Source of the DNA: a virus
Virus genome (UHGV): UHGV-1544975
DNA: 31,654 nt
Strand: one strand, 5' to 3'
Shown: one piece after another, positions 5,181 through 28,859 of the stretch
How positions within the stretch are numbered: the stretch's first letter is position 1
Layout: the number at the start of each line of letters is the position of its first letter
The notes under the pieces: generated by a model
What the model was told of the DNA's origin: nothing
The model's database searches: none
What the model saw: the letters and a program-made list of their open reading frames with translations, nothing else
Translations under genes and position numbers: made by a program

Positions 5181-7690
5181 TGCGGAATATCTCCGGAGAA
5201 TCTCTGACGCTTCTGTGTCAGATCAAGAACAACGGGAGAACCATCATCTTTTAGCAGATAACCAGTACCAAGTTTCACCAGGTACTGACTATCGCCGTAA
5301 CTTTGCAAACCATACTGACCAGGCGGTGTTTTTATCCCTGTGCCAACAACTTGTTCATTCCAAGCCTGATTAACCTGCTTATCGAATTGCTCTGCAGACA
5401 TTCCCCACGGCAAAAGAACATTCCCCATTCCGTTATAGTCATGCACGCCACCTGTAGCTACGTTAACAGCCTGTTTCCAGATATCATTGTCAATTTCGCC
5501 TGATACCACGCCTTTTTTCGCCATCACACCAGCGTAATAGTCCTTTGCGATCTCGTATGCCATTGATGCCCCCTGAGCATCACCAGCAAATGCATCCTTC
5601 ACCATGTCAGAAAACTCAAGGCGAAGATCAGCATCTTTAGGCATCGGAATACCTTTCGCGTCATCAGTACCTTTACGAGCCGCCGCGCCAGCAAGAATTG
5701 TCTGCGCAGCGGTTTCTGGAGACACGGAAACATCCGGATTAAACCAGTTTTTTTCTGCCAAAATACCACCTGGCTTATCCATCAGTATCCCGGCAACGGC
5801 AGCAGATGGAGCGTTGGCACTGATCTGCTGTAGTGCTGACATATACACCTGCCCACCACCAGTGCTCTGCCTGATGGTATCGAGATATGCTGCCTGTTGG
5901 GAAACGGGCGCATCACGAAAGAAAACACCGATCTGATTGGCCTCGTCTTTGGAAAAGAACGTCAGTGGAGTGCCATATGACTTAGCAAGGTCACTGACCT
6001 GAGCAGCACGCAAGGCAACGCTCTGTCCAAAGTTATCCTTATTGCTCATGTCGATAGGCTTTGCCTGTCCGGCGGCAAGAGAGAACTGTACAGGATCAGC
6101 CTGTCGCTGCTTTATCACCTGACTTGCAGCCGACACAACGTTGTCATAAAGAGCGGCTCGTGCCGCATAACCCTCCCCTGTCTCACCAGTATCCGGGCGT
6201 AATTGCTCAACATATGCTGTAATGCTGCTTGTCGGCATGTTGCGGAAAGAGCCTATATACTGTCCGGCGATTTGCGTATTTCTGAACTCGGTATATCGCA
6301 GGTTTCCTTCTCTTACTCCATAAGCTGCAATAAAATCAGCCTCACCAGGTGGGTTAGGAAATTCAACGCCACGCATATACGCAGCTGTCGCATCGCGAAC
6401 CTGGCTGTCAATCATCGTTTTATATTCAGCCTGCTGCTGCCGACGCAGTTGATCCGCCTGTCGCATAAAACTTGCCTGCGCCTCAGGAGATGCCGCATCG
6501 AATGCTGCATTACCGGTATAGCGTTTGGTGTTGGTTGGAATTGTTGATAAACCAAGTGCTGCACTGACACCAGCAGTTAACTGCTGATCACTGTATGGCT
6601 GGCTACCGTTCTCATGATGGATAATGGCTGCACAAAGCGCCTTCAGGGTATCAGGATTAGATGCATCGAGAGGCTCATCAGCAGAAACGCCAAGTTGTTC
6701 GCACACTGCTTTGATATACGACATAGTGTCATTTTTATCAGCAGGCGGTGCCCAGCGATTAATTATCTCGCTGACGGTATCAATACCCTGCCTCTGATAC
6801 GACATCAGGTTCCGCCCTAATGCACGAATCCCGTGTTCAGGTGTTTCGAATTTAGCAAATCGACCATCATCACCGGTCTGGCCTACCCACGGATTAGTTT
6901 TGCTGTATTCGAGATTTCCTGGGTTATTGTTGCGTATGCCACGGGCACGCTCGGAAGAGTCACTATCTGCTACAGCACGGCGAGCTCCAGCAGCAGTATC
7001 ACTTAACTCGCCATTACTTTGGATGAATGCGGTCGCATTGTTTGCCGACCACTGGGACAATGCAGCATCAGCAACCTTCTCTTTAAACTCGATTTTCTTG
7101 GCCTGGATTTGCTCGTTGCTCCAGCCATGTGCAACACCGTACTCCTCAATTTGCTGGAAAGTTTGCTTGTTAGCCAATACGTATGCGGCGTTGTCGCCAT
7201 ACAATGCTGCGGCATTTTTACCATTGTTCAGCAGTGTCGCCTGAAACTGGCCTTCTTCGTAGGCATTAATTTGCCCTATCTCGTGTCGCCCGGCCTGCGT
7301 AGTGAACTGAATGCGCTGCTGCTGCGCCTGCTGCATGAAAGCATTACGAGCCTGTTCATCCGGCAGCGACATAGCCAGTTGTTCGACCTGAGCATCAAAC
7401 TGCTGCGTATACTCATGGCCTTTTCCAATAGCATTTTTCCCTTTCAGGTTAAGCAATCCTGTTTCAGGATTATTCAGCAGATCGCTGCTTATCTGACTGA
7501 GGTTAAGAGATGCCTCCTGAGCCAGAGCGATATTGGCACGCTGTTTTGCCTGCCCCAAAACATCAATTGCCTCTGTCCCTGCCCGAACAAAAGCATCACC
7601 AATACCTTGCTGAGAAAACGTCTGCAAGCCTGCTGACTGAACTCCACGACTCTCAACCTGACGTCCGGATACTGTTGGTACGACTGGCAT
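5177..7690 (-). CDS. Internal virion protein (about 837 aa) with a possible cell-wall hydrolase segment
   Basis: Likely start at the internal ATG 7688..7690 (GGAGG RBS, overlaps the upstream stop) rather than track start 7765; conserved-looking segment GIRNNNPGNLEY... Confidence 0.45.
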   Translation of the reverse strand: MPVVPTVSGRQVESRGVQSAGLQTFSQQGIGDAFVRAGTEAIDVLGQAKQRANIALAQEASLNLSQISSDLLNNPETGLLNLKGKNAIGKGHEYTQQFDAQVEQLAMSLPDEQARNAFMQQAQQQRIQFTTQAGRHEIGQINAYEEGQFQATLLNNGKNAAALYGDNAAYVLANKQTFQQIEEYGVAHGWSNEQIQAKKIEFKEKVADAALSQWSANNATAFIQSNGELSDTAAGARRAVADSDSSERARGIRNNNPGNLEYSKTNPWVGQTGDDGRFAKFETPEHGIRALGRNLMSYQRQGIDTVSEIINRWAPPADKNDTMSYIKAVCEQLGVSADEPLDASNPDTLKALCAAIIHHENGSQPYSDQQLTAGVSAALGLSTIPTNTKRYTGNAAFDAASPEAQASFMRQADQLRRQQQAEYKTMIDSQVRDATAAYMRGVEFPNPPGEADFIAAYGVREGNLRYTEFRNTQIAGQYIGSFRNMPTSSITAYVEQLRPDTGETGEGYAARAALYDNVVSAASQVIKQRQADPVQFSLAAGQAKPIDMSNKDNFGQSVALRAAQVSDLAKSYGTPLTFFSKDEANQIGVFFRDAPVSQQAAYLDTIRQSTGGGQVYMSALQQISANAPSAAVAGILMDKPGGILAEKNWFNPDVSVSPETAAQTILAGAAARKGTDDAKGIPMPKDADLRLEFSDMVKDAFAGDAQGASMAYEIAKDYYAGVMAKKGVVSGEIDNDIWKQAVNVATGGVHDYNGMGNVLLPWGMSAEQFDKQVNQAWNEQVVGTGIKTPPGQYGLQSYGDSQYLVKLGTGYLLKDDGSPVVLDLTQKRQRFSGDIPQ

Positions 7691-8235
7691 TATAATCCTC
7701 CGGGTAATCTGGTTCCTGCTGCTGCCCCGATTGGCGCAGGAGTTCTTTGAGTAAACGGACTCCACGTCCCACCAAACATCTGGTATGCACCGTATGCCTT
7801 CAGAGGCGCAGTGAGCAATGTTGTTGCTGCTCCCACATTCCCCTGTTTACGGGCTGAACTGGCTTCTGCTTTATAGTTGGCAGCCTGAACCTGATAACCG
7901 TAAGCCTCGCGTTGCGCGTTATTCACCGTCGTCAGCGAATCAAGAGCGCCAAACTGGGCAGTGTCGCCAAATATATCCAGCGCGTTACCGGTAGATAAAT
8001 CGGCGCCGGTCGCCCCCATTGTCGCCGCCTGTGTACCAAGCCGCTGTCGTGTCTCTCTGCGCCGTTGCTCAGCTTCAGCGTTACCTCTGTTTATTGCATC
8101 ATTTGCCTGAGCTGTGGCTATATCTGCGTTCGCTTCTGCAACCTTCGAGGCATACTTTCCCTGTTGGTACTGGGTGTATGCCTGAATGCCACTCATGGCG
8201 AGCATTGCGCCACCAGCAATAACCGGATCGCACAT
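7690..8235 (-). CDS. T7 gp14-like internal virion protein B (181 aa)
   Basis: N-terminus MCDPVIAGGAMLAMSGIQA resembles T7 gp14 N-terminus MCWAAAIPIAISGAQA from memory; size and position fit. Confidence 0.4.
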   Translation of the reverse strand: MCDPVIAGGAMLAMSGIQAYTQYQQGKYASKVAEANADIATAQANDAINRGNAEAEQRRRETRQRLGTQAATMGATGADLSTGNALDIFGDTAQFGALDSLTTVNNAQREAYGYQVQAANYKAEASSARKQGNVGAATTLLTAPLKAYGAYQMFGGTWSPFTQRTPAPIGAAAGTRLPGGL

Positions 8236-8699
8236 TATTTTCTCTCCATGTGAAATCTGTGGAAATTAAGACCAAGAGCACCATAAGGCGCGGCTTCTTC
8301 AAGCCTGAATCCAAGCCAGTGCAGCCATGCTTTGGCAACATGGTTTCGCTCGTCGACGTAGTTTTCCAGGCGCGGATAAACTGCCAGCATCTGCTGCAAT
8401 ACAGGGCGGCAGTGGCGCAGAAATGTCTTCTGATATTTTTCAATACGGCTGGTTCCTACCAGCCAGGGCGTACCATTGCCACCGATCATTGACGCCGGAG
8501 ATACACCAAACATGGTCACCAGTTCTCCGTTCGCGAACCCTGACCAGGCCATAGTCGCAGTGCGAAGACCAACGCGCAGCGCATCTTCGGTAGTCATCAG
8601 CGATACCGCATACAGTTCGTCAATATCAGCCTGACGAACATCCGGCAAAATCATCTGAAGATGCTCTTCGGTAGCGGGAATAATTTGAACATCGATCAT
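8235..8699 (-). CDS. Virion-module protein (154 aa), possible GNAT-like fold; internal virion protein A position
   Basis: Segment NYVDERNHVAKAWLHWLGF resembles GNAT motif B; positional analogy to T7 gp13; translationally coupled to neighbours. Confidence 0.3.
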   Translation of the reverse strand: MIDVQIIPATEEHLQMILPDVRQADIDELYAVSLMTTEDALRVGLRTATMAWSGFANGELVTMFGVSPASMIGGNGTPWLVGTSRIEKYQKTFLRHCRPVLQQMLAVYPRLENYVDERNHVAKAWLHWLGFRLEEAAPYGALGLNFHRFHMERK

Positions 8700-12947: not shown

Positions 12948-12967
12948 GTGGGTCTGTTACGACCCAC
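12948..12967 (-). other. Stable stem-loop just after the capsid gene (GTGGGTC-N6-GACCCAC), no U-tract
   Basis: 7-bp perfect stem read directly; between the capsid stop (12984) and the next start (12932). Confidence 0.4.
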
Positions 12968-16876: not shown

Positions 16877-16965
16877 ATCAATGACTCCGTACGCAATTAA
16901 ATTATTACCAATTTAACCACATATGATTTATTTATCGTAGACAGTTGACATTTAATGCACGAATT

Positions 16966-16982
16966 ATTACCTTTCAGGTAAG
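16966..16982. promoter_or_regulatory. Operator-like palindrome ATTACC-TTTCA-GGTAAG upstream of the portal operon
   Basis: One of about nine copies of the ATTACC-N5-GGTAA motif. Confidence 0.45.
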
Positions 16983-17303
16983 TAAATGGTTCATTCCGGT
17001 TATTAACCTGACTGGCTTGTCGTTAAATTGAACAGGTGGAGTGAGCTTTTATTTTGAGCAGTACGGCGTATGGCACATGCGCCGATAGCGGTCTGGATAC
17101 GTTTAAGGGGCACCCTCCCTTGCTCGGGCAAACGAACCAGGTAGCCGGAATGTGCAAGTCGAGCGGTTTTATTCCGCGCACGGGGATTCACCATCCCGGC
17201 GATTCGGTGTGACGCCTCGGAAGAGACGAGGGTACAACGATGAGAGCATTTATGGAGCCGCGACAAAGTGTGGCGCCTTAACAGGCTAAGTGCTCTCAGC
17301 GTT

Positions 17304-17380
17304 GTGGCATTAGCTCAGTTGGACAGAGCAACCGCCTTCTAAGCGGTTGGTCGCAGGTTCGAATCCTGCATGCCACGCCA
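17304..17380 (+). tRNA. tRNA-Arg (anticodon UCU), 77 nt including 3' CCA
   Basis: Folded by hand: perfect 7-bp acceptor stem GTGGCAT/ATGCCAC, D-stem GCTC/GAGC, anticodon stem ACCGC/GCGGT, loop CTTCTAA, T-arm GCAGG-TTCGAAT-CCTGC, discriminator G, CCA. Confidence 0.9.
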
Positions 17381-17465: not shown

Positions 17466-17543
17466 ACAGCAGGACGCCATTGCGATGACTTCATGCTGTA
17501 AACCAGTACAGCCACGGAAGGCATAACTCATTGCTTCCAGTTC

Positions 17544-17567: not shown

Positions 17568-17578
17568 AAGGTGAGATT

Positions 17579-17875
17579 ATGAGCGAAACATCAACAGTAT
17601 CTTTCTCCACTGCTTTGTCATCACTCAAAGATGGTAAGCGCATTGCACGTGCCGGATGGAATGGCAAAGGCATGTATCTGCAACTGGTTAAGCCACCGCA
17701 ATCGGCCACTCCGAACGAGTGGCGATTTGACGTTACATGCGGTGACGAGTATACATTTGTACCTGGCGTTAAACTTCTACCGTGGATTGGGATGAAAACT
17801 GCTGACGGTTGCTTTGTACCGTGGCTGGCATCTCAAACCGATCTGCTATCTGATGACTGGATTGTAATTCAATAA
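17579..17875 (+). CDS. DUF2829-like small protein (98 aa), candidate Tad2-like anti-Thoeris protein
   Basis: Strong RBS; motifs ARAGWNGKGMYL and PWLASQTDLLSDDW match my recollection of DUF2829; opposite strand to flanking late genes. Confidence 0.5.
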   Translation: MSETSTVSFSTALSSLKDGKRIARAGWNGKGMYLQLVKPPQSATPNEWRFDVTCGDEYTFVPGVKLLPWIGMKTADGCFVPWLASQTDLLSDDWIVIQ

Positions 17876-19441: not shown

Positions 19442-20034
19442 TGATTACCATCCTGACGTTCTTTGAGTCGCTTCCTGGCTGCTGCTATGCGATCAGCAAT
19501 TGTCACATTCACATTAACATCCAGACGTTCTTTGAACGCGTTGACATCAACATGCTTACCAATCAGCTCAAGGTTCTTCACCTTGTCAGGCCATTTAATT
19601 TTTTTGAGGATTGTCTCTATCGAATCCTCGTTCATGTTCATGATGGTCGATGACAGATCAAAGCCACTAAGCGTAGTGCGCCAGATTTTCGGCCACTCAC
19701 GGATTGGTTTAAGGCTCCCATCGTCGTTGAGGATGTCGATCACGTCCATCTGGTCGATCTGCACCAGGCGCATGAGAACGTAATCAGCACTGACGCGCAT
19801 TCGTTTGTTGCGCTCCTCCATCAACTCGGCAATCCGTTTTTGAATGCGTTCATCGCGCATCATGACACTGGCTTTAACTGCCGCTGTATTTGGGGAGAAT
19901 CCTGCGTTAATCGCTGCCTGAGTCTGGTTTTCAGGCGTTTTGATGTATGACTGGCAATAAGCCTCCTGCATTGCTGTTAGTGGCTTAAATTGCGTTGATT
20001 TGCGTTTATAGGTTTTAGGTTCAGCAGGCATCAT
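19438..20034 (-). CDS. Terminase small subunit (about 198 aa)
   Basis: Small-terminase-like DNA-binding N-terminus (TAMQEAYCQSYIKTPENQTQAAINAGFS); track start 20112 is probably over-extended; tandem ATGs at 20034 and 20031 follow GGTGG. Confidence 0.65.
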   Translation of the reverse strand: MMPAEPKTYKRKSTQFKPLTAMQEAYCQSYIKTPENQTQAAINAGFSPNTAAVKASVMMRDERIQKRIAELMEERNKRMRVSADYVLMRLVQIDQMDVIDILNDDGSLKPIREWPKIWRTTLSGFDLSSTIMNMNEDSIETILKKIKWPDKVKNLELIGKHVDVNAFKERLDVNVNVTIADRIAAARKRLKERQDGNQ

Positions 20035-20050
20035 AACCACCGTGGTAATA

Positions 20051-20067
20051 GTTACCGTTGTGGTAAT
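20051..20067. promoter_or_regulatory. Operator-like palindrome (minus-strand reading ATTACC-ACAAC-GGTAAC) with an extra GGTAAT half-site, just upstream of the terminase gene
   Basis: Motif copy read directly; lies inside the spurious N-terminal extension of the track ORF. Confidence 0.45.
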
Positions 20068-20069
20068 AG

Positions 20070-20103
20070 TACCATACAAAATAAAGCCGCCATAGTTGGC
20101 GGC
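20070..20103 (-). terminator. Rho-independent terminator (GCCGCCA-N4-TGGCGGC then UUUAUUUUGUAU on the minus strand) separating accessory genes from the terminase operon
   Basis: 7-bp perfect stem, T-rich tail on the minus strand. Confidence 0.55.
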
Positions 20104-20144
20104 AGTATTCAAAACCCATCAAATTCATCATGCATAATCTACTC

Positions 20145-20156
20145 GTGACATGTCAC
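20145..20156. repeat. 12-bp perfect palindrome GTGACATGTCAC, copy 3 of 3
   Basis: Exact match; overlaps the stop codon of 20153..20494 in the same register as copy 1. Confidence 0.8.
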
Positions 20157-20494
20157 ACTATTAATTTCGTTTCATGCCAGCCTTTAGTCACCCAGCATTG
20201 CGAGTCACCATTACACGGGCATGAATTAACTGGAACTCTCTCGCCGCACTTACCGCAACATTTTCTGCTGATCGATTTTATACGCCCGCGCACGCGTGCA
20301 TCATCCTGGCGGATCAGTAACGCTATATACTCACCAAATTCGTAAGGCGCACGCCCGGGGCGACGCGTGGCACAGTTACGCTCCAGCATTTCAATTTCCT
20401 GAGCATCCAGCACAATCTCCAGCTTACGTACACCGGATGCAGCTTGTCTGGCTCTCTGAGCGGCTTTGCGCTCTGCTGCTGATTTAGCCATCAA
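20153..20494 (-). CDS. Cys-rich small protein (113 aa), possible zinc-binding regulator
   Basis: Basic N-terminus; C-terminal cysteine cluster CCGKCGERVPVNSCPCNGDSQCW; sits where lambdoid phages carry Q. Confidence 0.4.
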   Translation of the reverse strand: MMAKSAAERKAAQRARQAASGVRKLEIVLDAQEIEMLERNCATRRPGRAPYEFGEYIALLIRQDDARVRGRIKSISRKCCGKCGERVPVNSCPCNGDSQCWVTKGWHETKLIV

Positions 20495-20765
20495 TATTTA
20501 CCTTTATCGCGAACACCTTTACCGGTTTATCGCCGAAGTGCGGATGTGTGATTGTCTTGATTTCATATCCGTCATACGGAATATCAATTCTGCGGCTGGA
20601 ATCGTCGCGCTTCGGATATCCCTTTGTGATAATCAGACGGTCATACTTACGGTTAACGAGTCGCTTTTTCCAGTAGTCATTACACAAGCGATACTCTTCC
20701 GTTTTCTCTCCGCGAATCATGGCATTGAAGTATTCACCTTTTACGGCAAGTTGCAGGTTAGCCAT
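20484..20765 (-). CDS. Small protein with possible ASCH/PUA-like fold
   Basis: Likely start at the internal ATG overlapping the upstream stop; LQLAVKGEYFNAMIRGEKTEEYR resembles ASCH-domain N-termini. Confidence 0.35.
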   Translation of the reverse strand: MANLQLAVKGEYFNAMIRGEKTEEYRLCNDYWKKRLVNRKYDRLIITKGYPKRDDSSRRIDIPYDGYEIKTITHPHFGDKPVKVFAIKVNIDG

Positions 20766-21025
20766 TACCGCACCTCCAGTCTCCATACCGCCTGACCAAT
20801 CCGGCTGGCATGGTTATCTTTAGATACTGTTCCGTCTTTAGCAATCTCCATAAGAATTTTGCGCAAATCTGCCGAGCGCCATTCTTCATCAGGAAATTCC
20901 TTCTCCATTGCCAACCGCAGATTCCAGGTTGCTATCGTGAATGGATATTCCCCGCCGAGAGCTTTCTCTTGCAAGGCAGCACGGGAACGCATCACCTGCA
21001 AAACCTTCTCTTTTACATCCATCAT
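20765..21025 (-). CDS. Hypothetical protein (86 aa)
   Basis: ORF translationally coupled to neighbours. Confidence 0.4.
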   Translation of the reverse strand: MMDVKEKVLQVMRSRAALQEKALGGEYPFTIATWNLRLAMEKEFPDEEWRSADLRKILMEIAKDGTVSKDNHASRIGQAVWRLEVR

Positions 21026-21840
21026 TTTGCCTCCTGCGGCGGTTCTGGTAGCTGCATCCAGTGGGTTACCTCTTTGAGATACAGGTCTTCGCCATCACCG
21101 TCATCCCAAGTGGGATTGCCATCATTAAACCAGTCGCCATATACGCCGACCTGAGTGTTGGGGATGTTTGGTGGGTAGTTGTTTTTAAAGTCAGCTGCTA
21201 ACACATAGCATTGTCGCTCTCCCATTTCTGGCATCTGCTCACTACAGCTTATCCAACCATCCGGAGTTACCGGAGAATTGCCACCCTGAACAGTAGGCAT
21301 ATCCGGACCTTTGCGAATCGCCCTGGCAAGATCGATTGGGTCGTCGTACAACCAGTCACCTGTTTGCGGATGATTGGCTTCTGCCAATTGTGCAGCCCAC
21401 TCCAGGCCGTCTTTGTGTCCTTGCAGATAGTCCAGCGGTAACTCATCACTATTACTTACAGGTTCGGCCTGAAGCATGGCGGCGCGGCAGGCGTTCCAGC
21501 CGACAGCTTTTCCGTGTTCAAACGCGCTGTCAAAGTCATCATCAATTTCCATCGCAGCGGGCACAGATACCGGCGCTGGCGGGGCGGTGTAAAGCGGCGT
21601 TACTTCTCGCAGCGGGTCGGCATAAGCATTGCCACTATCGAAGCTGACGTTGTTTTTTGCCCCGCCTCCTGACAGCAACCACGCCACCGGCTCCTGCTCC
21701 ATGCCAGCCGTCAGCGCTTCCAGTGCGATTTTGAAGATTTGCGCATCGAGTTGCGCTTCTTCAAAATCAGGGTAATGGGTTGTTACCGCAAGACGGCGCT
21801 CAAGCTCCTCAATCAACTGCTCTTTCGTAAATTCAGCCAT
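21022..21840 (-). CDS. DUF551-like C-terminal domain protein (272 aa)
   Basis: C-terminal ...GWISCSEQMPE...VTHWMQLPEPP matches my recollection of the DUF551 signature common in enterobacterial prophages. Confidence 0.5.
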   Translation of the reverse strand: MAEFTKEQLIEELERRLAVTTHYPDFEEAQLDAQIFKIALEALTAGMEQEPVAWLLSGGGAKNNVSFDSGNAYADPLREVTPLYTAPPAPVSVPAAMEIDDDFDSAFEHGKAVGWNACRAAMLQAEPVSNSDELPLDYLQGHKDGLEWAAQLAEANHPQTGDWLYDDPIDLARAIRKGPDMPTVQGGNSPVTPDGWISCSEQMPEMGERQCYVLAADFKNNYPPNIPNTQVGVYGDWFNDGNPTWDDGDGEDLYLKEVTHWMQLPEPPQEAK

Positions 21841-21844
21841 ATCC

Positions 21845-22216
21845 CTACTCCCCCTTGATGCCAGCGGCGCTAAGCTTGGTATTCACATCACCTTCAAAAA
21901 TAGGCAGTACACCAATTGCAGCGGCCCAGTTTTTAGCTAACTCAGGGTCAGATGTCTCGTCGGTGTAGTCTGATGCCCGCCACCCAATCAGTCGTTTCTG
22001 ACCAGGAATGTCAGAGTTTCGCTTCTCCGTTGCTTGCTCTAGAGCATTAAGAAGTGTACGTATTTCATGCTGCTGAGTAGAGATGCTTGAGTCTTTGGCT
22101 TCCAGCTCATCAAGCAGCGCCAGCACATCCCGAGTGGGGACCATAAAGTTCGGCATGAAGTTATCTTTTGCCTTTTCTGCTGTTAGGCGCAGCGCCTGTT
22201 TGTCGATGTTGCTCAT
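21845..22216 (-). CDS. Hypothetical coiled-coil protein (123 aa), possibly Ead/Ea22-like
   Basis: Position and composition only. Confidence 0.35.
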   Translation of the reverse strand: MSNIDKQALRLTAEKAKDNFMPNFMVPTRDVLALLDELEAKDSSISTQQHEIRTLLNALEQATEKRNSDIPGQKRLIGWRASDYTDETSDPELAKNWAAAIGVLPIFEGDVNTKLSAAGIKGE

Positions 22217-22866
22217 TGCGCGTCCCCCTTGCGAATCTGGGCGGCGATGTCTTCGAGTACACCATCAGCGAACGAGCGATCGAAATCGCCTTCCGGCGCA
22301 TCATCCATAAACTCTGTGGAGGTCAGTATCATTCGTGCGATGTCCGCAGCGTTCTTCGCTGTGTCTTCGATAAACCCAGCCTCCCATGCAGCCAGCATTC
22401 GGTTGGCAACAAAGTGAGCGCCTTCCTTGTGGGCTTGCGCCCGCACTTCAGCCAGGAAAGCATCGGTGGCTGGAATGGGCTTTTGTGGTGATATAGCAAT
22501 GCGAATTGTCTCAAGGTCTGGATCTGTTTCCGCTGCTGGCACCTTGATATAACCCACCTGCACCCCATTCATGATGAACCTGCGACGGTCATCACATATC
22601 GCCTTTAGCCCCGCATTCTCCGCCGCCAGCGCCGAAAACTTCTCGTGTGCCAACTTAACAGCTGCATCAGCCTGCTTAATTGACTCAATCGCTTTCTGTT
22701 GGTCTTCGGCCAGCGCATTAGCACGCACCAGTTGCACTTCCAGTTGCGTTGCCAAATCGCTGATCAGCTTTGCCACACTGCGCATATCAACGGCACCACA
22801 TTCTGCTTTCAGTTCCGAAGCCATCTCATGCCCGGCGGAAACTAACCATTTGATATTACCGTCCAT
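22213..22866 (-). CDS. Hypothetical protein (217 aa), Ala-rich coiled-coil N-terminal half
   Basis: ORF with 4-nt overlap to the next gene. Confidence 0.4.
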   Translation of the reverse strand: MDGNIKWLVSAGHEMASELKAECGAVDMRSVAKLISDLATQLEVQLVRANALAEDQQKAIESIKQADAAVKLAHEKFSALAAENAGLKAICDDRRRFIMNGVQVGYIKVPAAETDPDLETIRIAISPQKPIPATDAFLAEVRAQAHKEGAHFVANRMLAAWEAGFIEDTAKNAADIARMILTSTEFMDDAPEGDFDRSFADGVLEDIAAQIRKGDAQ

Positions 22867-22927
22867 CTTTACCCTCGCTTATCCACATAACTTATTGATT
22901 ACATTGATAACTAAAAAGATCGTCGAT

Positions 22928-23272
22928 TCAGAACTCTTCGATGTTCCAGCCACCACCTGCTTTCTTTGGCTTAACCGTTACCCCGATGATTCGGAACGGA
23001 TACTGATCTGCGGCGACTTTGGTTTTCACTCTGGCGTCATCGGTCCAGAAACCTTTCACTTCGTGTAGTTCCATCTCGCCGGTGGCGAGCATCACAGCAA
23101 AATCGGGCGTATAGAACGTGTTGTCAGCTAACCGCAGCTTGATACCCTCGAATCGATACCAGGCGATTTCCCCTGCACGTTTACGCAGCTCAAGGTGCTG
23201 GCAATACGCAGATTCTGTTTTGTTCATCTGGCCTGTTTTGAGTCGACCAAGAGCCTGTATCTGTTTTCTCAT
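22928..23272 (-). CDS. Small protein with PD-(D/E)xK nuclease-like motif (DUF1064-like?)
   Basis: Motif ...YTPDFAV...ELHEVKG consistent with a D...(D/E)xK core. Confidence 0.35.
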   Translation of the reverse strand: MRKQIQALGRLKTGQMNKTESAYCQHLELRKRAGEIAWYRFEGIKLRLADNTFYTPDFAVMLATGEMELHEVKGFWTDDARVKTKVAADQYPFRIIGVTVKPKKAGGGWNIEEF

Positions 23273-23274
23273 GA

Positions 23275-23353
23275 TTTACCTCTAAGGTAATTAAAAACCA
23301 CATAAGACACGAAATCAATAGAGTTTAGAATATTTTATTACCCAACAGGTAAT
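23275..23353. promoter_or_regulatory. Two operator-like palindromes (TTTACC-TCTAA-GGTAAT at 23275..23291; ATTACC-CAACA-GGTAAT at 23337..23353)
   Basis: Read directly; the first abuts the start codon of 22928..23272. Confidence 0.5.
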
Positions 23354-23389
23354 TATCAAGGCGTAAAAAAATGCGCTATCGCGCTGGTA

Positions 23390-24190
23390 TTACTTGATAA
23401 ATCCTGCCGCCTTTCCCCGCCTGTATTCCTCCATCAGCCACTGCGCCGGTGTTATTCCCCCAAGGGTGGCGGCGTTAGGCATGCACCCGAAACTTCGCCC
23501 TGGTGGATGGTAAACGTCTCTCCCTGTGTCCGGAGGCGTACTCATGGGTTCTGGCTTTGCCTGTATGCTGATCACCGGATCGGGTATCTGCTGTCCGGAA
23601 GCCACCTTTTTCGCCCAATCATCGAGCAGCCTGCGCGCGTGTTTCTCAACCTCTATCTCGCTAAGCTGGCGCTGATACATTGCACGGCGGGTATCACATA
23701 CGACCCAGTACATAACCGGATGCCGCCACGGGAATCTTTCGGGACCACCAGGATATAAACTTTTTTCCTTGCTGTACCGGTGAAACTCCGTCATCACATC
23801 GTCAATGGTGACGCCAAGAACCATCTTGCTGTCTTTGCACCACTTGATGAATTGCCCTGGCGACGGCCAGAACGGAGATTCACTGGCGCGGGCGTGGCGC
23901 ATACCAGCAGAAACCTGTTCACGGGTTCGGATCCCCCCTTCGGCAAACGCAGCAATCCACTGCTGTTTTGCAGCAACTTCCTGCTCTGGCGTCTTCAGGT
24001 TGGTTACCACTGCCGCCGGAAACAGTTGTTTCAGCTGTTTGAAAAGGGCATCAACAAGCCTCTCTGCTGACATGTTCACCACGTTGTCATTGTTGGTGTA
24101 CTGATGCTCATAACCTGACATGCGAGAAAGGGCTTCTCCGTCACGGTTTTGTATCGCGGTAAAAACGTTGTTCACAAGAAATCCTCCCAT
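23390..24190 (-). CDS. Replication protein P-like (helicase loader), lambda P family
   Basis: Segments FPAAVVTNLK...QQWIAAFAEGGIRTREQVSAGMRHARA...PFWPSPGQFIKWCKD align with remembered lambda P FPASLANRD...RRQWVLAFRENGITTMEQVNAGMRVARR...PFLPSPGQFVAWCRE. Confidence 0.75.
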   Translation of the reverse strand: MGGFLVNNVFTAIQNRDGEALSRMSGYEHQYTNNDNVVNMSAERLVDALFKQLKQLFPAAVVTNLKTPEQEVAAKQQWIAAFAEGGIRTREQVSAGMRHARASESPFWPSPGQFIKWCKDSKMVLGVTIDDVMTEFHRYSKEKSLYPGGPERFPWRHPVMYWVVCDTRRAMYQRQLSEIEVEKHARRLLDDWAKKVASGQQIPDPVISIQAKPEPMSTPPDTGRDVYHPPGRSFGCMPNAATLGGITPAQWLMEEYRRGKAAGFIK

Positions 24191-24987
24191 GCTTCAGGGC
24201 TGTTCCAGTGCGGAACGTTGTTATCAGGTAATGTTGATTGCTTCTGTCTGCTAATCTGCAGCCGCCTTGCCAGCTTCTGCTCCCACTGTGCCTGATGGTA
24301 TGCCTTACCCTCAGCCATCCAGTAAATTCTGAACTCTGCAAGTTCCTGTGCCGTTGGCAGACTGTCCAGGTAGATCCCCTGCAAGGAGCTTTTCCGAAGA
24401 AAGTCATCTGATGGCTGCCATTGTTCATGCATGACAAATTTGCCTAATTGCCCTGGCCCACCAGGAGGAACAAAGTTATTCATCACGGCGTTGTTTGCGC
24501 CGGGGTCATGAGGCACAGAATCCCCGTTTTTTGTCCTGCTCTCCCTCTCTTGGTTAAATGACTGGTTATATGACTGGTTCTGGATCCCGTTTTTGGGATC
24601 ATTCAACATCCCGTTTTTGGGATCATTCAACATCCCGTTTTTGGGTATATTCCCGTTTTCGGTAACATTACCGTTTTCGGGTTCATTGCCCCCCTCCCGG
24701 TTGCCTTTAATGTTCCCGTTTTTGGTTATATTAAGAGAGAAAACCCGCACTCTTTTCGTCGCTCCCTTTCTCTCTCCGGTATCTGAAATAAGCCCCATTT
24801 TCATGAGCGATATAAGCCCGGCCTGCACGGTTTTTTTATTCAGGCAAGTGTCTTTAACGAGGCGTTCTATGCTGGGGTAGCAGAGGTTATATTCATCGGC
24901 TCTGTCAGCCATCGAGAGCAGTATGAGCTTTAATGACGAGCTACCTGGATCTGTCTCCCAGGCCCAATCTGTTGCATGTCTGCTCAT
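24172..24987 (-). CDS. Replication initiator, lambda O-like (271 aa), with embedded iterons
   Basis: N-terminal HTH-like region; central Asn/Gly/Pro-rich repeats encoded by tandem DNA repeats; immediately upstream of the P-like gene. Confidence 0.65.
   Translation of the reverse strand: MSRHATDWAWETDPGSSSLKLILLSMADRADEYNLCYPSIERLVKDTCLNKKTVQAGLISLMKMGLISDTGERKGATKRVRVFSLNITKNGNIKGNREGGNEPENGNVTENGNIPKNGMLNDPKNGMLNDPKNGIQNQSYNQSFNQERESRTKNGDSVPHDPGANNAVMNNFVPPGGPGQLGKFVMHEQWQPSDDFLRKSSLQGIYLDSLPTAQELAEFRIYWMAEGKAYHQAQWEQKLARRLQISRQKQSTLPDNNVPHWNSPEAWEDFL
24585..24732. repeat. Iteron array (putative replication origin) inside the O-like gene
   Basis: TCCCGTTTTTGGGATCATTCAACA occurs twice in tandem, followed by degenerate copies (TCCCGTTTTTGGGTATAT, TCCCGTTTTCGGTAACATTA, CCGTTTTCGGGTTCATTGCC, TTCCCGTTTTTGGTTATATT). 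Confidence 0.65.
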
Positions 24988-25002: not shown

Positions 25003-25203
25003 TCAGCTTGAATATTGTGGGGAGGAATTAATCATGATCTGCTTAATCTCTGCCCTGATGCGACGGTTTGATTCCATGGTGCACTCAACACAGTGTCCGT
25101 TGTAAACCCAGCGTTCACTGTCATGTCCGTGCTTACATGGTTTTCCGGTGTAGTAGCGTTTAAGTCCGCGCTTTGCGGCATCAATACGTGTAATGATTTC
25201 CAT
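25003..25203 (-). CDS. Small zinc-finger-like protein (about 66 aa) in the cII position
   Basis: Cys/His cluster YTGKPCKHGHDSERWVYNGHCVEC; start assumed at the internal ATG; track start 25266 possible. Confidence 0.35.
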   Translation of the reverse strand: MEIITRIDAAKRGLKRYYTGKPCKHGHDSERWVYNGHCVECTMESNRRIRAEIKQIMINSSPQYSS

Positions 25204-25282
25204 GGTAAGCCCTGTTATTAGTATTTGGATTACGGTTATTTTGTGCTGACACAAAAAAAAGATCAACCAGATTTGGTTTTTT

Positions 25283-25298
25283 ATTACCTTTGAGGTAC
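25283..25298. promoter_or_regulatory. Imperfect operator-like palindrome ATTACC-TTTGA-GGTAC
   Basis: Read directly. Confidence 0.35.
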
Positions 25299-25353
25299 GG
25301 ATAGATATGAAAAGACCGCCGGGTGGCGGTCTACAGAGGGTTGTAGCTGGATA

Positions 25354-25584
25354 TCATGAGTAGAAGAAGTATGCCAGTTCTGCTTTTGAGCGCAGCCATT
25401 GTCTTGTTTTACAGGCTTTAAAAAGCCCATTCATCAATACTTTACCTGGCATTTTGCGCTTACCTGTTAAGTGAGTCTGGATATAGTGACTCGTCGTTCC
25501 GGCTTCCTGTGCGAAGGCTTCACGCTCATCCGGAGTAAGTGCAAGCCAGTGCTTTTTGAAATCGAAATGTCCGTTATCGCTCAT
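25354..25584 (-). CDS. Cro-like small HTH regulator (76 aa)
   Basis: First gene of the minus-strand replication operon, divergent from the repressor-like gene; helix-turn-helix-like segment. Confidence 0.45.
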   Translation of the reverse strand: MSDNGHFDFKKHWLALTPDEREAFAQEAGTTSHYIQTHLTGKRKMPGKVLMNGLFKACKTRQWLRSKAELAYFFYS

Positions 25585-25738
25585 AGCTATTGCCTGATAT
25601 TTATTTCAGATAATAAATATTCACCCATAAGGTAACAAAAATCAAGGATAGTTACCTATGGGGTGCATTTACCTGTTGGGTAATATTGCTTTAAATTGAA
25701 TCATCTACTGATTCATATATGAGGCGATTTTCCAGAAA
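25585..25738. promoter_or_regulatory. Immunity switch intergenic region with divergent promoters and operators
   Basis: AT-rich inverted repeat ATATTTATT-N6-AATAAATAT (25597..25620); half-sites GGTAAC (25631..25636) and GTTACC (25651..25656); palindrome TTTACC-TGTTG-GGTAAT (25668..25684); possible minus-strand promoter TTGTTA-17-TATTAT. Confidence 0.55.
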
Positions 25739-26323
25739 ATGAAAAGTATCCAGGACGTCCGCAGGCAAAATCTCAACGACTTGATCGACCGTGAATTCAA
25801 TGGTGTTCAGACGCGGATGGCAGAAAAACTTGGAACTCAGGCAAATCTGGTAAACCGCTGGGCTCTTGGCAAGAAGGTTATCGGCGACCAGGTTGCACGA
25901 AAAATTGAAGCTGCCGCCAATAAACCCCGTAACTGGCTTGATATTGATCGTTCGCTTTCTCAGGAGGGTTTTCAGCCTGTCGGACCAAGCGACATTGGTC
26001 AACTGGCGGCTCACAACCTGGAACGCTGGATGAGCGAAAGCCGCGACCTTTCAACACAGGGAAAACTTCACCGCGCATCCGGCGTAGCCCAGGTGACAAT
26101 CAGCCGCCTGTTAAACAATGAGGTCAGCGTTTCCATTTCCACCCTGGAGAATGTTGCATCCGCATTCGGGCGTCATGGCTATGAATTACTGATTCACCCG
26201 CACGACCCTGCGACCATCAACTATGATCGCTCGCGCTACGCATTGTTACCCGAAACCGAGAAAGCAAAGATCGAAAGTTACATTGAATTTGTCATCAACC
26301 AGAACGAAAAAAGCAAACAATAA
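25739..26323 (+). CDS. Repressor-like protein with two HTH domains (194 aa), no S24 peptidase domain
   Basis: N-terminal and central segments both look HTH-like; divergent from the Cro-like gene; followed by a terminator. Confidence 0.5.
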   Translation: MKSIQDVRRQNLNDLIDREFNGVQTRMAEKLGTQANLVNRWALGKKVIGDQVARKIEAAANKPRNWLDIDRSLSQEGFQPVGPSDIGQLAAHNLERWMSESRDLSTQGKLHRASGVAQVTISRLLNNEVSVSISTLENVASAFGRHGYELLIHPHDPATINYDRSRYALLPETEKAKIESYIEFVINQNEKSKQ

Positions 26324-26345
26324 AACCATAGTTTTCAGTAAGTAA

Positions 26346-26370
26346 GCCGCCTCATGGCGGCTTTTTTATT
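26346..26370 (+). terminator. Rho-independent terminator after the repressor-like gene (GCCGCC-TCAT-GGCGGC then TTTTTT)
   Basis: 6-bp GC stem plus 6-T run. Confidence 0.65.
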
Positions 26371-26379
26371 GCCAGATAG

Positions 26380-26458
26380 ATTACCTTACGGGTAATTTTT
26401 TTAACTCATATCTATTGACACCAAACCAAATAAGCATAATTATTACCCCAACGGTAAC
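26380..26458 (+). promoter_or_regulatory. Early-operon promoter flanked by two operator palindromes
   Basis: ATTACC-TTACG-GGTAAT (26380..26396); -35 TTGACA (26415..26420), 17-nt spacer, -10 AATTAT; ATTACC-CCAAC-GGTAAC (26442..26458) over the -10/+1. Confidence 0.5.
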
Positions 26459-26476
26459 AGACCGAGGTAACAAGTT

Positions 26477-26629
26477 ATGCAGTGGAAAATCATCAACGGT
26501 TGGTACTGCGTTACTGCATGCGGATTCATGAGCTGGAAGTTCCGCACCTTACAGGAAGGCATTAAGTGGGCTTTCGTCAGCAAAGAAGCTCGCGATGTGG
26601 CCAACGATAACGAGATATGGGAGGGCTGA
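26477..26629 (+). CDS. Small protein (50 aa), first gene of the early operon
   Basis: Hand-translated ATG..TGA with GAGG RBS; below track cutoff; stop 2 nt before the next start. Confidence 0.35.
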   Translation: MQWKIINGWYCVTACGFMSWKFRTLQEGIKWAFVSKEARDVANDNEIWEG

Positions 26630-26631
26630 TA

Positions 26632-26931
26632 ATGAACGTTAATCAGCAGAAAAATCTTCAAAAAATCATGCTGGCATTCGACAAGGACTACCGCCTGTCA
26701 GAACAGCTATATGACCGACAAGTTGAACTGATTGAGAGCATCCGACTTCATCAACTGTCCTCAACTTTCGACGTTGTAACAGGCAAAGGCGTTCGTCAGG
26801 AAGTACTGGAGGCTGCTAAAGACAGCCCTGAGTTCGAAGAACTGATGGATGCCTATCGGCGAGAGGCAATGGCAATTATCGCCCGCTGGGATCTGGCGGA
26901 TCAGCTTGATGGGCAGAGGGACGCGGCATGA
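26632..26931 (+). CDS. Hypothetical early protein (99 aa)
   Basis: Internal ATG of track ORF 26617..26931 with GGGAGGG RBS; overlaps the exonuclease start. Confidence 0.45.
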   Translation: MNVNQQKNLQKIMLAFDKDYRLSEQLYDRQVELIESIRLHQLSSTFDVVTGKGVRQEVLEAAKDSPEFEELMDAYRREAMAIIARWDLADQLDGQRDAA

Positions 26932-27827
26932 TGCGGAACGCTGGAATCATGGATAGAACAAAATACATCGGAGGAAGCGATGTTGCAGGGATTCTTGGAA
27001 TTAGCCCATGGCGCACCCCGCTTGAGGTTTATCTGGATAAGGTCCAGCCACGTGTCAAACCAGTAGACCCAAGCAAGCAGAAAGTTTTCACGCGTGGCCA
27101 GCGTATGGAGCCATACGTAATAGACCTGCTTTCTGAGGAAACAGGGATGGAAATCGTTCATCGCGGAAACCGCTATATCCACCGTGATTACGATTTTATT
27201 GCAGCTGAGATCGATGCAGAAGCAGCGTCAGGCGAGAACATTGAGATCAAAACAGTTAGTCCGTTCAAAGCCAAAGAATGGGGAGAAATCCAGACAGATG
27301 CAATTCCTGTGCATTACACGGCCCAGGCCATGCACGGGTTGATGGTTACAAACAAACAGGTATGCGTTTTCGGTGTGCTTATCGGTGGCGACGACTTCCG
27401 AATCTATCGGGTTGAGCGTGATGAAGAAACTATCCAGGCGATCTTAGAAAAAGAAATCGCTTTCTGGGACCGAGTGAAAAATCTTAACCCGCCGGAAGCT
27501 ACCAGCGTAAGCGATGTATCGCTGATGTTTGAGAAAGATGCCGGGACAAGTATCGAGGCTGACGGAAAGGCACTCGCACTATTCAACAATCTACGAGACA
27601 TGAAATCACGCAGAAAATCACTGGAAGAAGAAATAGCTATATCAGAAGAGAAGCTGAAGATGTACATGCAAGAGCACTCAGTCCTGACCCTGGACGGAAA
27701 GCCGCTCTGCACATGGAAATCTCAGATCAGCAACAGATTCGACCAGAAGCTATTCCAGTCAGTACACCCTGAGTTATTCGAAAAATTCAAAACAACAACG
27801 ACACAACGCGTCTTCAGAATGAAGTAA
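26928..27827 (+). CDS. YqaJ-like recombination exonuclease (lambda Exo fold) with C-terminal extension
   Basis: N-terminal GGSDVAGILGISPW and D...E.K-type motif (AEIDAEAASGENIEIK); directly upstream of recT. Confidence 0.75.
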   Translation: MMRNAGIMDRTKYIGGSDVAGILGISPWRTPLEVYLDKVQPRVKPVDPSKQKVFTRGQRMEPYVIDLLSEETGMEIVHRGNRYIHRDYDFIAAEIDAEAASGENIEIKTVSPFKAKEWGEIQTDAIPVHYTAQAMHGLMVTNKQVCVFGVLIGGDDFRIYRVERDEETIQAILEKEIAFWDRVKNLNPPEATSVSDVSLMFEKDAGTSIEADGKALALFNNLRDMKSRRKSLEEEIAISEEKLKMYMQEHSVLTLDGKPLCTWKSQISNRFDQKLFQSVHPELFEKFKTTTTQRVFRMK

Positions 27828-27836
27828 GGAGAAAAA

Positions 27837-28859
27837 ATGTCTATCAATGCACTTAAGGCAGCGGCTACCGGTAACCAAGTTGCACATCATAATGAGAAAC
27901 CAACAACTCTGGCCGGACTTCTGGCAGACCCAAAAATTAAAGCTCAGATGGCTTTGGCACTTCCAAAGCACATGACAGCAGACCGTCTGGCGCGCATAGC
28001 AACCACAGAGATCAGAAAGGTTCCAAAACTTGCATCATGCGACCAAGCCAGCTTCCTGGGGGCAATTATGCAATGTGCCCAATTGGGTCTTGAACCAGGC
28101 GGAGCTCTTGGACACGCTTACCTGATACCGTTCGACAAACGCCAGAAAGTAAATGGAAGATGGGAAACCGTATCTACAGAAGCACAGCTGATTATCGGCT
28201 ATCGCGGAATGATTGACCTTGCCCGCCGCTCTGGGCAGATCCTGAGTATCTCGGCTCGTACCGTACATACAAACGACAAATTCAGCTACTCATACGGCCT
28301 GGAAGAAACGCTCGAGCATTTACCTTGCGAAACAGGTGACAGCGGAGAATTAACGCACGTTTACGCCGTTGCACGACTGAAAGATGGCGGAGTCCAATTT
28401 GAAGTTATGAGCCGGGCAGACGTTGAGAAAGTTCGTGCACTGAGCAAAGCCGGTAGCAGTGGCCCATGGGTTGATCACTTCGATGAGATGGCTAAAAAAA
28501 CAGTAATTCGCCGACTGTTCAAATATCTTCCTGTTTCTATTGAAATGCAGAAGGCTGTTGTTATGGATGAGCGCGCTGAAGCTGGACTTAGCCAAGATAA
28601 CGCAGCTGTTATCACTGGTGAATATTCCGTAGTTGACGATGAGCGTCAACACCTGTCGCCAATTTCAGATTCAGAACGAGAAGAAGCTCGAGAATATATC
28701 ATCGCGATACTTAATAGCCTGGATCCATCTGCTGAAGATGCAAAAACGATGTTCAAGCGCGCTGAAAATGAAATTAACACCATGGCTGAAAAGCTCGGTG
28801 ATGAATATCACCAAAAATTCATGATGACGCTTAACGATATGCGTCCAGAATTCGAGTAA
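27837..28859 (+). CDS. recT: RecT-family single-strand annealing protein
   Basis: Characteristic segments LGLEPGGALGHAYLIPF and KKTVIRRLFKYLP; paired with the exonuclease. Confidence 0.85.
   Translation: MSINALKAAATGNQVAHHNEKPTTLAGLLADPKIKAQMALALPKHMTADRLARIATTEIRKVPKLASCDQASFLGAIMQCAQLGLEPGGALGHAYLIPFDKRQKVNGRWETVSTEAQLIIGYRGMIDLARRSGQILSISARTVHTNDKFSYSYGLEETLEHLPCETGDSGELTHVYAVARLKDGGVQFEVMSRADVEKVRALSKAGSSGPWVDHFDEMAKKTVIRRLFKYLPVSIEMQKAVVMDERAEAGLSQDNAAVITGEYSVVDDERQHLSPISDSEREEAREYIIAILNSLDPSAEDAKTMFKRAENEINTMAEKLGDEYHQKFMMTLNDMRPEFE

Follow-up and report, generated by a model that had tools for sequence, protein, structure and literature searches.

Probable Rep/Ant-type immunity switch, built like that of phage SPC32H, in a phiV10-type Uetakevirus prophage of Escherichia coli

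The region described here is very probably the switch that controls immunity in a Uetakevirus prophage of the phiV10 type, and it follows the plan of the Rep/Ant switch known from SPC32H. It was investigated in a window of 31,654 nucleotides, the whole stretch of DNA analysed (UHGV virus genome UHGV-1544975). Judging from sequence comparison, it is the immunity region of a phiV10/epsilon15-type E. coli prophage, a Uetakevirus and therefore an epsilon15-like podovirus. The repressor gene is already known from the annotation of phiV10, as a two-HTH repressor, and from overexpression experiments in ZX5, and the mechanism has been solved structurally for SPC32H Rep, the homologue 43% identical to the present repressor. 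The SPC32H lytic switch itself was reportedly described by Kim & Ryu (2013, J Virol) and by Kim et al. (2016, PNAS).

The assignment of the element is based on several observations. About 1.3 kb around the switch display 97-98% DNA identity with phiV10, vB_EcoP_ZX5, phiv142-3 and other E. coli Uetakevirus genomes, and the window is collinear with phiV10 in the reverse orientation. Its gene order leads from the tail genes to the terminase, the early genes, the immunity region, the recombination genes and the start of the integrase. Differences from phiV10 and ZX5 are found in the accessory genes, namely the 98-aa ORF at 17579, the exonuclease/RecT region and the left-end genes. The initial 10.2 kb of the window match, without a single difference, a prophage located beside yfgI in E. 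coli ECSC054 (NZ_AP024112.1), and its first 1200 bp are matched in 561 of 5426 complete genomes, a count that concerns this segment and not the rep gene. A tRNA-Arg is the sole Rfam match in the whole window, and the 270-nt leader that precedes it is not notable in its folding (z = -1.7).

The core of the region is formed by two divergent genes separated by a spacer of 154 bp (32% GC). The initial annotation had described a 194-aa protein divergent from a Cro-like gene, and both ORFs were recovered with the same limits:

25739..26323, plus strand: rep, encoding the predicted 194-aa maintenance repressor (from the ORF list, Pfam and homology)
26344..26363, plus strand: intrinsic terminator after rep
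26415..26443, plus strand: predicted PL-like promoter, TTGACA-17-AATTAT (consensus match 10/12)
25354..25584, minus strand: 76-aa HTH gene (phiV10 p41/epsilon15 gp39), first gene of the opposite early operon
25610..25638, minus strand: predicted sigma-70 promoter of the 76-aa gene, TTGTTA-17-TATTAT (9/12 consensus)
25313..25332, minus strand: intrinsic terminator downstream of the 76-aa gene, with a terminator annotated at the corresponding position in phiV10

The genes behind the PL-like promoter encode a 50-aa protein, a 104-aa protein, an exonuclease and RecT. No promoter of rep passed the consensus scan.

The 194-aa protein, Rep, can be identified from its relatives as the maintenance repressor of this prophage. 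It is 99.5% identical, with one amino-acid difference, to phiV10 p40, annotated as a 'putative transcriptional repressor' with two helix-turn-helix motifs, and to ORF21 of phage ZX5, the overexpression of which abolishes free phage and lowers the transcripts of endolysin and holin by about 99.9% (PMC9782041). Residues 1-190 of Rep are aligned by phmmer with residues 2-197 of 5D50_A, the SPC32H 'Repressor' (E 3.5e-42), residues 89-190 also match PDB 5D4Z, and BLASTP against SPC32H Rep yields 43% identity over 199 residues (E 1e-53). In SPC32H Rep, DNA is bound by an N-terminal domain, a middle domain mediates dimerisation and a C-terminal domain serves both for tetramerisation and for the binding of Ant (DBD + MDD + CAD; PMC9986798), and the same architecture can be proposed for the present protein:

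residues about 1-72: predicted N-terminal HTH DNA-binding domain, followed by a linker
residues about 89-152: predicted middle XRE-like dimerisation domain
residues about 153-194: predicted C-terminal tetramerisation/Ant-binding segment

Identity with SPC32H Rep reaches 53% in the N-terminal domain, 34% in the middle domain and 51% in the C-terminal segment, a distribution that agrees with the roles assigned to these domains; the HTH helices are 50% identical in the N-terminal HTH and 26% in the middle domain. In Pfam, which was run on five ORFs (25006-26928), Rep matches HTH_3 in two stretches, the best one at residues 106-147 (E 1.2e-9), and a YdaS-type HTH at residues 21-61. The two HTH-like segments noticed from the sequence alone were thus both retrieved, and the description of a double-HTH protein stands as far as the presence of two such domains is concerned. 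It has to be corrected for the second segment, which matches the Rep dimerisation domain and not a second DNA reader (PMC9986798). By analogy this segment is the middle dimerisation domain, because the homologous domain of SPC32H Rep is so described (PMC9986798). The AlphaFold (AF2) model of Rep (pLDDT 77) comprises two helical domains and a C-terminal helix, and the top 12 matches obtained with Foldseek against the PDB are all 5D50/5D4Z, with a TM of 0.70-0.74 for the C-terminal half. No beta-strand is present in this model at about residues 157-162, where the pLDDT is low; the monomer model therefore lacks the strand of the tetramerisation motif.

The absence of an S24 peptidase domain and of an Ala-Gly signature, also claimed initially, is fully corroborated. 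Besides the HTH domains, the profile search produced no Peptidase_S24 match in Rep even at E<=1, and the protein is devoid of any AG or CG dipeptide and of cysteine. Its 86 homologues in a large protein database are all about 190-200 aa long, with HTH as their only Pfam domains, and none of them carries an S24 domain either. Since Rep lacks this domain, RecA would not be able to drive its self-cleavage.

The operators of the region are, as sequence matches, palindromes of the form TTACC-N5-GGTAA (17-bp form ATTACC-N5-GGTAAT), which are predicted Rep sites. Seven perfect copies of TTACC-N5-GGTAA are present in the window, as compared with 0.01 expected, and the GenBank record of epsilon15 marks the 17-bp ATTACC-N5-GGTAAT sites as repressor-binding. 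Three predicted operators are located in the spacer between rep and the 76-aa gene, at 25621, 25652 and 25669, and further sites are distributed over the window:

25621..25635: operator OR-a, TCACCCATAAGGTAA, 1 mismatch, overlapping the -35/spacer of the leftward promoter
25652..25666: operator OR-b, TTACCTATGGGGTGC, 2 mismatches, position kept in 6/6 aligned phages
25669..25683: operator OR-c, TTACCTGTTGGGTAA, perfect; its centre is 17 bp from that of OR-b
25284..25298: operator-like site, TTACCTTTGAGGTAC, 1 mismatch, between the terminator 25313..25332 and the next early gene
26381..26395: operator OL-1, TTACCTTACGGGTAA, perfect, located before the -35 of the promoter of the recombination genes
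26443..26457: operator OL-2, TTACCCCAACGGTAA, perfect, at -10/+1 of PL, 62 bp from OL-1
23276..23290 and 23338..23352, minus strand: second operator pair, both sites perfect and separated by 62 bp, in front of the DUF1064/resolvase-like gene
20034..20066: two adjacent operators (sites 20034, 1 mismatch, and 20052, perfect) at the small terminase gene
16967..16981: perfect operator overlapping the -10 position of a TTGACA promoter (16945)

The pair at 23276/23338 brackets the promoter TTGATT-17-TTTAAT of the DUF1064 gene, where the same pair with the same spacing can be observed in phiV10 and SPC32H. More generally, the motif occupies the same relative places in these two phages, including the 62-bp pairs. 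In epsilon15, the equivalents of the OL sites are annotated 'protein_bind: repressor', and the record also contains an annotated repressor site (12-27) before TerS; in the window, the operators 20034/20052 abut an in-frame ATG at 20034, which is likely the TerS start codon. The promoter at 16945 reads toward the tRNA-Arg and the 98-aa ORF, and equivalents of its operator exist in phiV10, SPC32H and epsilon15. When the spacers of six Uetakeviruses are aligned, the positions of the three operators and of the -35 element TTGATTTTT are invariant. In the window both early promoters carry operators, as does the ant promoter of the source genome. The conservation of the same half-site despite only 43% identity between the Rep proteins, combined with the invariance of residues N36, R40 and W41 of the N-terminal HTH across the family, points to the N-terminal domain as the operator reader. 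The map of these sites provides the likely Rep regulon.

The 76-aa gene is the first of the replication-side operon and is followed by the terminator. Its product is 76% identical to the SPC32H homologue and matches phrog_35 (E 5.6e-13); no family was assigned to it in Pfam or NCBIfam. The AF2 model (pLDDT 86.6) contains five helices with an XRE-like HTH, for which the best folds in Foldseek are the YdaS NTD and the 434/P22 c2 DNA-binding domains, at a non-significant E of about 1; a profile match to PDB 8BNY, 'immunity repressor' (E 0.015), is the sole sequence link. The motif AGTTSHYIQTH is nearly invariant among the 76-aa proteins, S32 and Q36 varying in a few rows of the alignment. This protein is Cro-like by position, and a function equivalent to that of Cro may be proposed on this ground.

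The ant gene and its LexA box are situated outside the window and are known from the identical source genome and from relatives. In the ECSC054 prophage, the Ant module (L008, 7067-7363) is found 1.6-1.9 kb to the left of the window start. It is composed, in this order, of a Rep operator ATTACCTTTCAGGTAAT, a near-consensus LexA box TACTGTATAAATATACAGTT, the 85-aa ant gene directly behind this box, a second operator and a BRO-N gene. The 85-aa Ant is 88% identical to that of SPC32H, in which a LexA box is present at the equivalent place; the Ant of phiv142-3 matches 5D50_E, 'Anti-repressor protein', with an E of 1.4e-46, and 35 of 36 phage records contain both Rep and Ant. Inside the window, tblastn searches with Ant and with the BRO-N protein returned only noise (E>0.2), and no antirepressor emerged from PHROG scans of ten early ORFs (20156-24987, 17579-17872). 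Perfect CTGT-N8-ACAG ends occur in the window only at 12954 and 17496, a number not above chance; the LexA-like site at 17496, upstream of the 98-aa ORF, was considered as an induction input and rejected, having no counterpart in SPC32H.

The initial annotation had anticipated that a repressor unable to undergo autocleavage may need an antirepressor, to be looked for in the rest of the prophage, or another signal. None is encoded inside the window, and the LexA-box/ant module was found just to its left in the identical prophage. This suggestion is now well supported, by homology and context, because of the relationship of Rep to SPC32H Rep and the presence of the LexA-box/ant module in the same prophage, to which the ZX5 overexpression phenotype can be added. 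In Salmonella phages, once LexA has cleaved itself an antirepressor can be made, and this protein inhibits the repressor through direct contact between the two (PMC7380047, citing Kim & Ryu 2013), and prophages of the phiV10 species are induced 21-47-fold by a DNA-damaging microcin (bioRxiv 10.64898/2026.05.26.727859). The second gene of the module deserves attention as well. Residues 155-232 of the BRO-N protein (78 residues) are 41% identical to Ant (E 1e-16), and the BRO-N 'anti-repressor' of phiV10-type phages, the gene of which lies outside the window, can be read from this similarity as a BRO-N::Ant fusion, which would explain the ZX5 result. Given this C-terminal Ant-like domain, the operon controlled by LexA and Rep would encode two Ant-domain proteins.

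These elements can be assembled into a mechanism in which the N-terminal HTH of Rep would bind the ATTACC-N5-GGTAAT operators. Rep would hold the three spacer operators, the two at PL (62 bp apart) and the sites of the DUF1064 gene, the terminase, the tRNA and ant. Its middle domain would dimerise and its C-terminal strand-helix segment would produce tetramers; with this combination, one tetramer could hold two operators. In the published system, DNA is bound by the Rep tetramer, and an Ant tetramer binds two Rep dimers, splitting the Rep tetramer (PMC9638917). Upon DNA damage, the host LexA would be cleaved and the operon to the left of the window derepressed, leading to the synthesis of the small Ant (85 aa) and of the BRO-N::Ant-like fusion. 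Ant would then bind the C-terminal part of Rep, the tetramer would be broken and the operators released. For the present prophage, the binding of Ant to Rep, the non-cleavage of Rep and tetramer-dependent DNA binding can be inferred from the SPC32H homologue, and the Ant contacts and the oligomeric state of Rep are extrapolated from a crystallised protein 43% identical to Rep.

A further element of the spacer had been interpreted initially as a hint of two operator classes:

25597..25620: AT-rich perfect inverted repeat, ATATTTATT-N6-AATAAATAT (arms 9+9, loop 6)

The repeat itself is exactly as first described. It overlaps the predicted -10 (TATTAT, 25615-25610)/+1 of the leftward promoter, a place from which a bound protein would cause repression. 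No other perfect inverted repeat of the window has arms >=9 and a loop of 3-12, and only about 1% of spacer shuffles reach such an arm. It could accordingly be imagined that the second HTH-like domain of Rep, which still scores as HTH_3, or the 76-aa protein binds it as a second class of operator. This is quite improbable, as the palindrome is not conserved. Among the six aligned spacers, only those of the phiV10 lineage have it intact; in Tyrion and BUCT554 it is degenerate, with 7/9 pairs kept and changes that do not compensate, and nothing similar is present in the spacers of epsilon15, SPC32H and the Klebsiella phages, even though the phages devoid of it possess 76-aa proteins that still show 76% identity and a nearly invariant recognition helix. 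It is also absent from the other Rep-controlled promoters, its sole other match being at 823-846 with 3 mismatches. The middle domain of Rep, for its part, has poorly conserved HTH helices (26%) and is described as a dimerisation domain in the homologue, and AT-rich symmetry near -10 hexamers is common in general. The proposal of two operator classes consequently finds no support, and the palindrome is regarded, from its position and its distribution, as a feature that one lineage has acquired or kept in its core promoter region.

Two other alternatives bear on the identity of the actors. It has been proposed in the ZX5 paper that in phiV10-type phages the antirepressor at work is the BRO-N protein rather than the small Ant. 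Overexpression of ZX5 ORF4 (BRO-N) indeed lowers lysogen counts about 1000-fold (PMC9782041), and the BRO-N gene lies downstream of ant in the same operon and encodes the Ant-like residues mentioned above. However, SPC32H has no BRO-N gene, and there it is the small Ant that is annotated, and has been crystallised, as the antirepressor; ZX5 also possesses the small Ant, 97.6% conserved, and it is the small Ant gene that directly follows the LexA box. An exclusive role of the BRO-N protein is therefore rather unlikely, but both proteins may act together, and this idea refines the Rep/Ant explanation more than it competes with it. It is hardly credible, on the other hand, that the 194-aa protein is only an accessory XRE regulator or antitoxin (HigA/VapI-like), the true and possibly autocleavable repressor being encoded elsewhere. 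The label 'plasmid maintenance system antidote protein VapI' appears in one phage record, and NCBIfam yields HigA/HipB-type matches, but these are sub-threshold and far below the cut-off (18.7 vs 47.7 bits). The gene occupies the classic cI position between divergent early operons with operators on its flanks, an overexpression phenotype has been published for the 99.5% identical ZX5 ORF21, and the homologue is the crystallised Rep. The PHROG scans of the 10 early-region ORFs, in which an S24 domain would not be flagged, produced nothing annotated as a repressor.

The Rep/Ant reading can be placed among known systems. With the switch of SPC32H, a Salmonella Uetakevirus (PDB 5D4Z, 5D50), the region shares a repressor homologous over its full length with the three-part architecture, ATTACC-N5-GGTAAT operators at the same relative positions, the gene order and a small Ant (88% identical) behind a LexA box and a Rep operator. 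It differs by the divergence of Rep, only 43% identical overall and 34% in the middle domain, and by the operators at PL, two in the window versus three in SPC32H. The phiV10 lineage also adds the BRO-N::Ant-like gene downstream of ant and the AT-rich palindrome over the leftward promoter, which SPC32H lacks. The SPC32H Ant has reportedly been described by its authors as structurally distinct from the antirepressors of Gifsy and Fels-2 and from Tum of 186. In the Gifsy/Fels-2 and coliphage 186 systems, a LexA-repressed small protein likewise inactivates a non-cleavable repressor (PMC7380047, PMC3121763), whereas the repressors belong to other families. Repressors of the lambda CI/P22 C2/LexA type resemble Rep in genome position, divergent promoters, multiple palindromic operators and an XRE-type N-terminal HTH, but Rep is devoid of the S24 peptidase domain with its Ala-Gly site and Ser/Lys dyad, and would oligomerise instead by an XRE-like dimer domain and a p53-like tetramerisation segment. 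Finally, Rco of the Rco/Rap system of Bacillus plasmid pLS20, a TetDloop repressor, combines an N-terminal HTH with a C-terminal p53-like tetramerisation domain, and its repression is also relieved by a protein partner (PMC9986798). Unlike Rep, it has no middle dimerisation domain; its targets are conjugation genes, and the signal to which its anti-repressor responds is a peptide and not the SOS response.

The value of these results beyond annotation is small, but the label of a Rep/Ant-type immunity switch, with an antirepressor controlled by LexA, can be given to the region with confidence. The BRO-N::Ant fusion, a point seemingly unstated before, reconciles the ZX5 experiments with the SPC32H mechanism. 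Two more speculative and related ideas are together improbable: that the palindrome of the phiV10 clade is a true second operator, recognised either by the HTH-like middle part of Rep or by the product of the 76-aa gene, or that the two Ant-domain proteins cross-induce heterologous Uetakevirus prophages. Were the former true, a lineage-specific layer would be added to the Rep/Ant switch; were the latter true, one prophage, through free Ant and BRO-N::Ant, would switch on heterologous Uetakevirus prophages with conserved Rep C-termini. For the Rep/Ant switch as proposed here, it can be predicted that a common E. coli prophage type is SOS-inducible without cleavage of its repressor, and that it may possibly be induced in trans by the Ant proteins of related prophages.

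Two promoters each carry a pair of predicted operators (TTACC-N5-GGTAA) for Rep, the 194-aa maintenance repressor. These pairs, at 26381/26443 and 23276/23338, are separated by exactly 62 bp from centre to centre, and operator pairs with the identical spacing are found in phiV10 and in the Salmonella phage SPC32H. This arrangement fits a single Rep tetramer gripping two operators across a promoter.

Predicted Rep operators also extend to a tRNA gene and to the gene of the small terminase subunit (TerS), in the following regions:

17030-17300, + strand, GC-rich leader (about 270 nt) separating tRNA-Arg from the promoter at 16945
17304-17380, + strand, tRNA-Arg (anticodon TCT)
20029-20112, - strand, TerS 5' region

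The tRNA-Arg is annotated likewise in the SPC32H record, whereas the phiV10 record has a protein ORF, p04, over its position and no tRNA. Upstream lies a TTGACA promoter (16945), and a perfect Rep operator (16967) covers its -10 element, so that tRNA expression would be repressed in a lysogen. The intervening leader gave no Rfam match and a fold z-score of only -1.7; an RNase III site is marked in the equivalent region of the epsilon15 record.

For TerS, the longest ORF begins with the TTG at 20112, the start also annotated in phiV10, and its first 26 codons contain two Rep operators (20034-20066). An in-frame ATG at 20034, adjoining these operators, would give a TerS of 198 aa, close to the 197 aa of the SPC32H protein. 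The start of phiV10-type TerS has thus probably been placed too far upstream in the annotation. At these predicted operators, Rep may act directly to block late-gene entry.

Other regions depart from phiV10 or from SPC32H:

7684-8394 in a stretch of E. coli ECSC054 DNA carrying the source prophage (some 0.6-1.3 kb to the left of where the window begins), BRO-N "anti-repressor" gene
17579-17875, + strand, 98-aa ORF of unknown function (phrog_1048/872)
26931-28856, + strand, genes for an exonuclease (299 aa) and for RecT (340 aa)

The C-terminal domain of the BRO-N protein (residues 155-232) is homologous to the small SPC32H-type antirepressor Ant (41% identity, E 1e-16). In the ECSC054 prophage, the operon under LexA/Rep control thus encodes two Ant-domain proteins, whereas SPC32H has the small Ant only. 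The recombination module contains a mosaic replacement relative to phiV10: its exonuclease and RecT genes lack a DNA match to that phage, in which a "recET fusion" is annotated. The 98-aa ORF replaces phiV10 p03, and 17577-17870 likewise lacks a DNA match to phiV10. The LexA-like CTGTAAACCAGTACAG 68 bp upstream of this ORF is probably due to chance, since SPC32H has no counterpart.

The only other sequence in the window resembling the AT-rich palindrome of the predicted leftward promoter is ATATTTGTAGCGGTCAATAAATAA (823-846), with three mismatches and poor internal symmetry; this likeness is probably fortuitous. It is situated immediately after the large tail gene.

When the phiV10 lineage is compared with that of SPC32H, Rep is only 43% identical, as against 88% for Ant and 76% for the divergently encoded 76-aa protein, Cro-like by position, and the operator half-site is unchanged. 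Cross-immunity or cross-induction between these lineages is thus conceivable.
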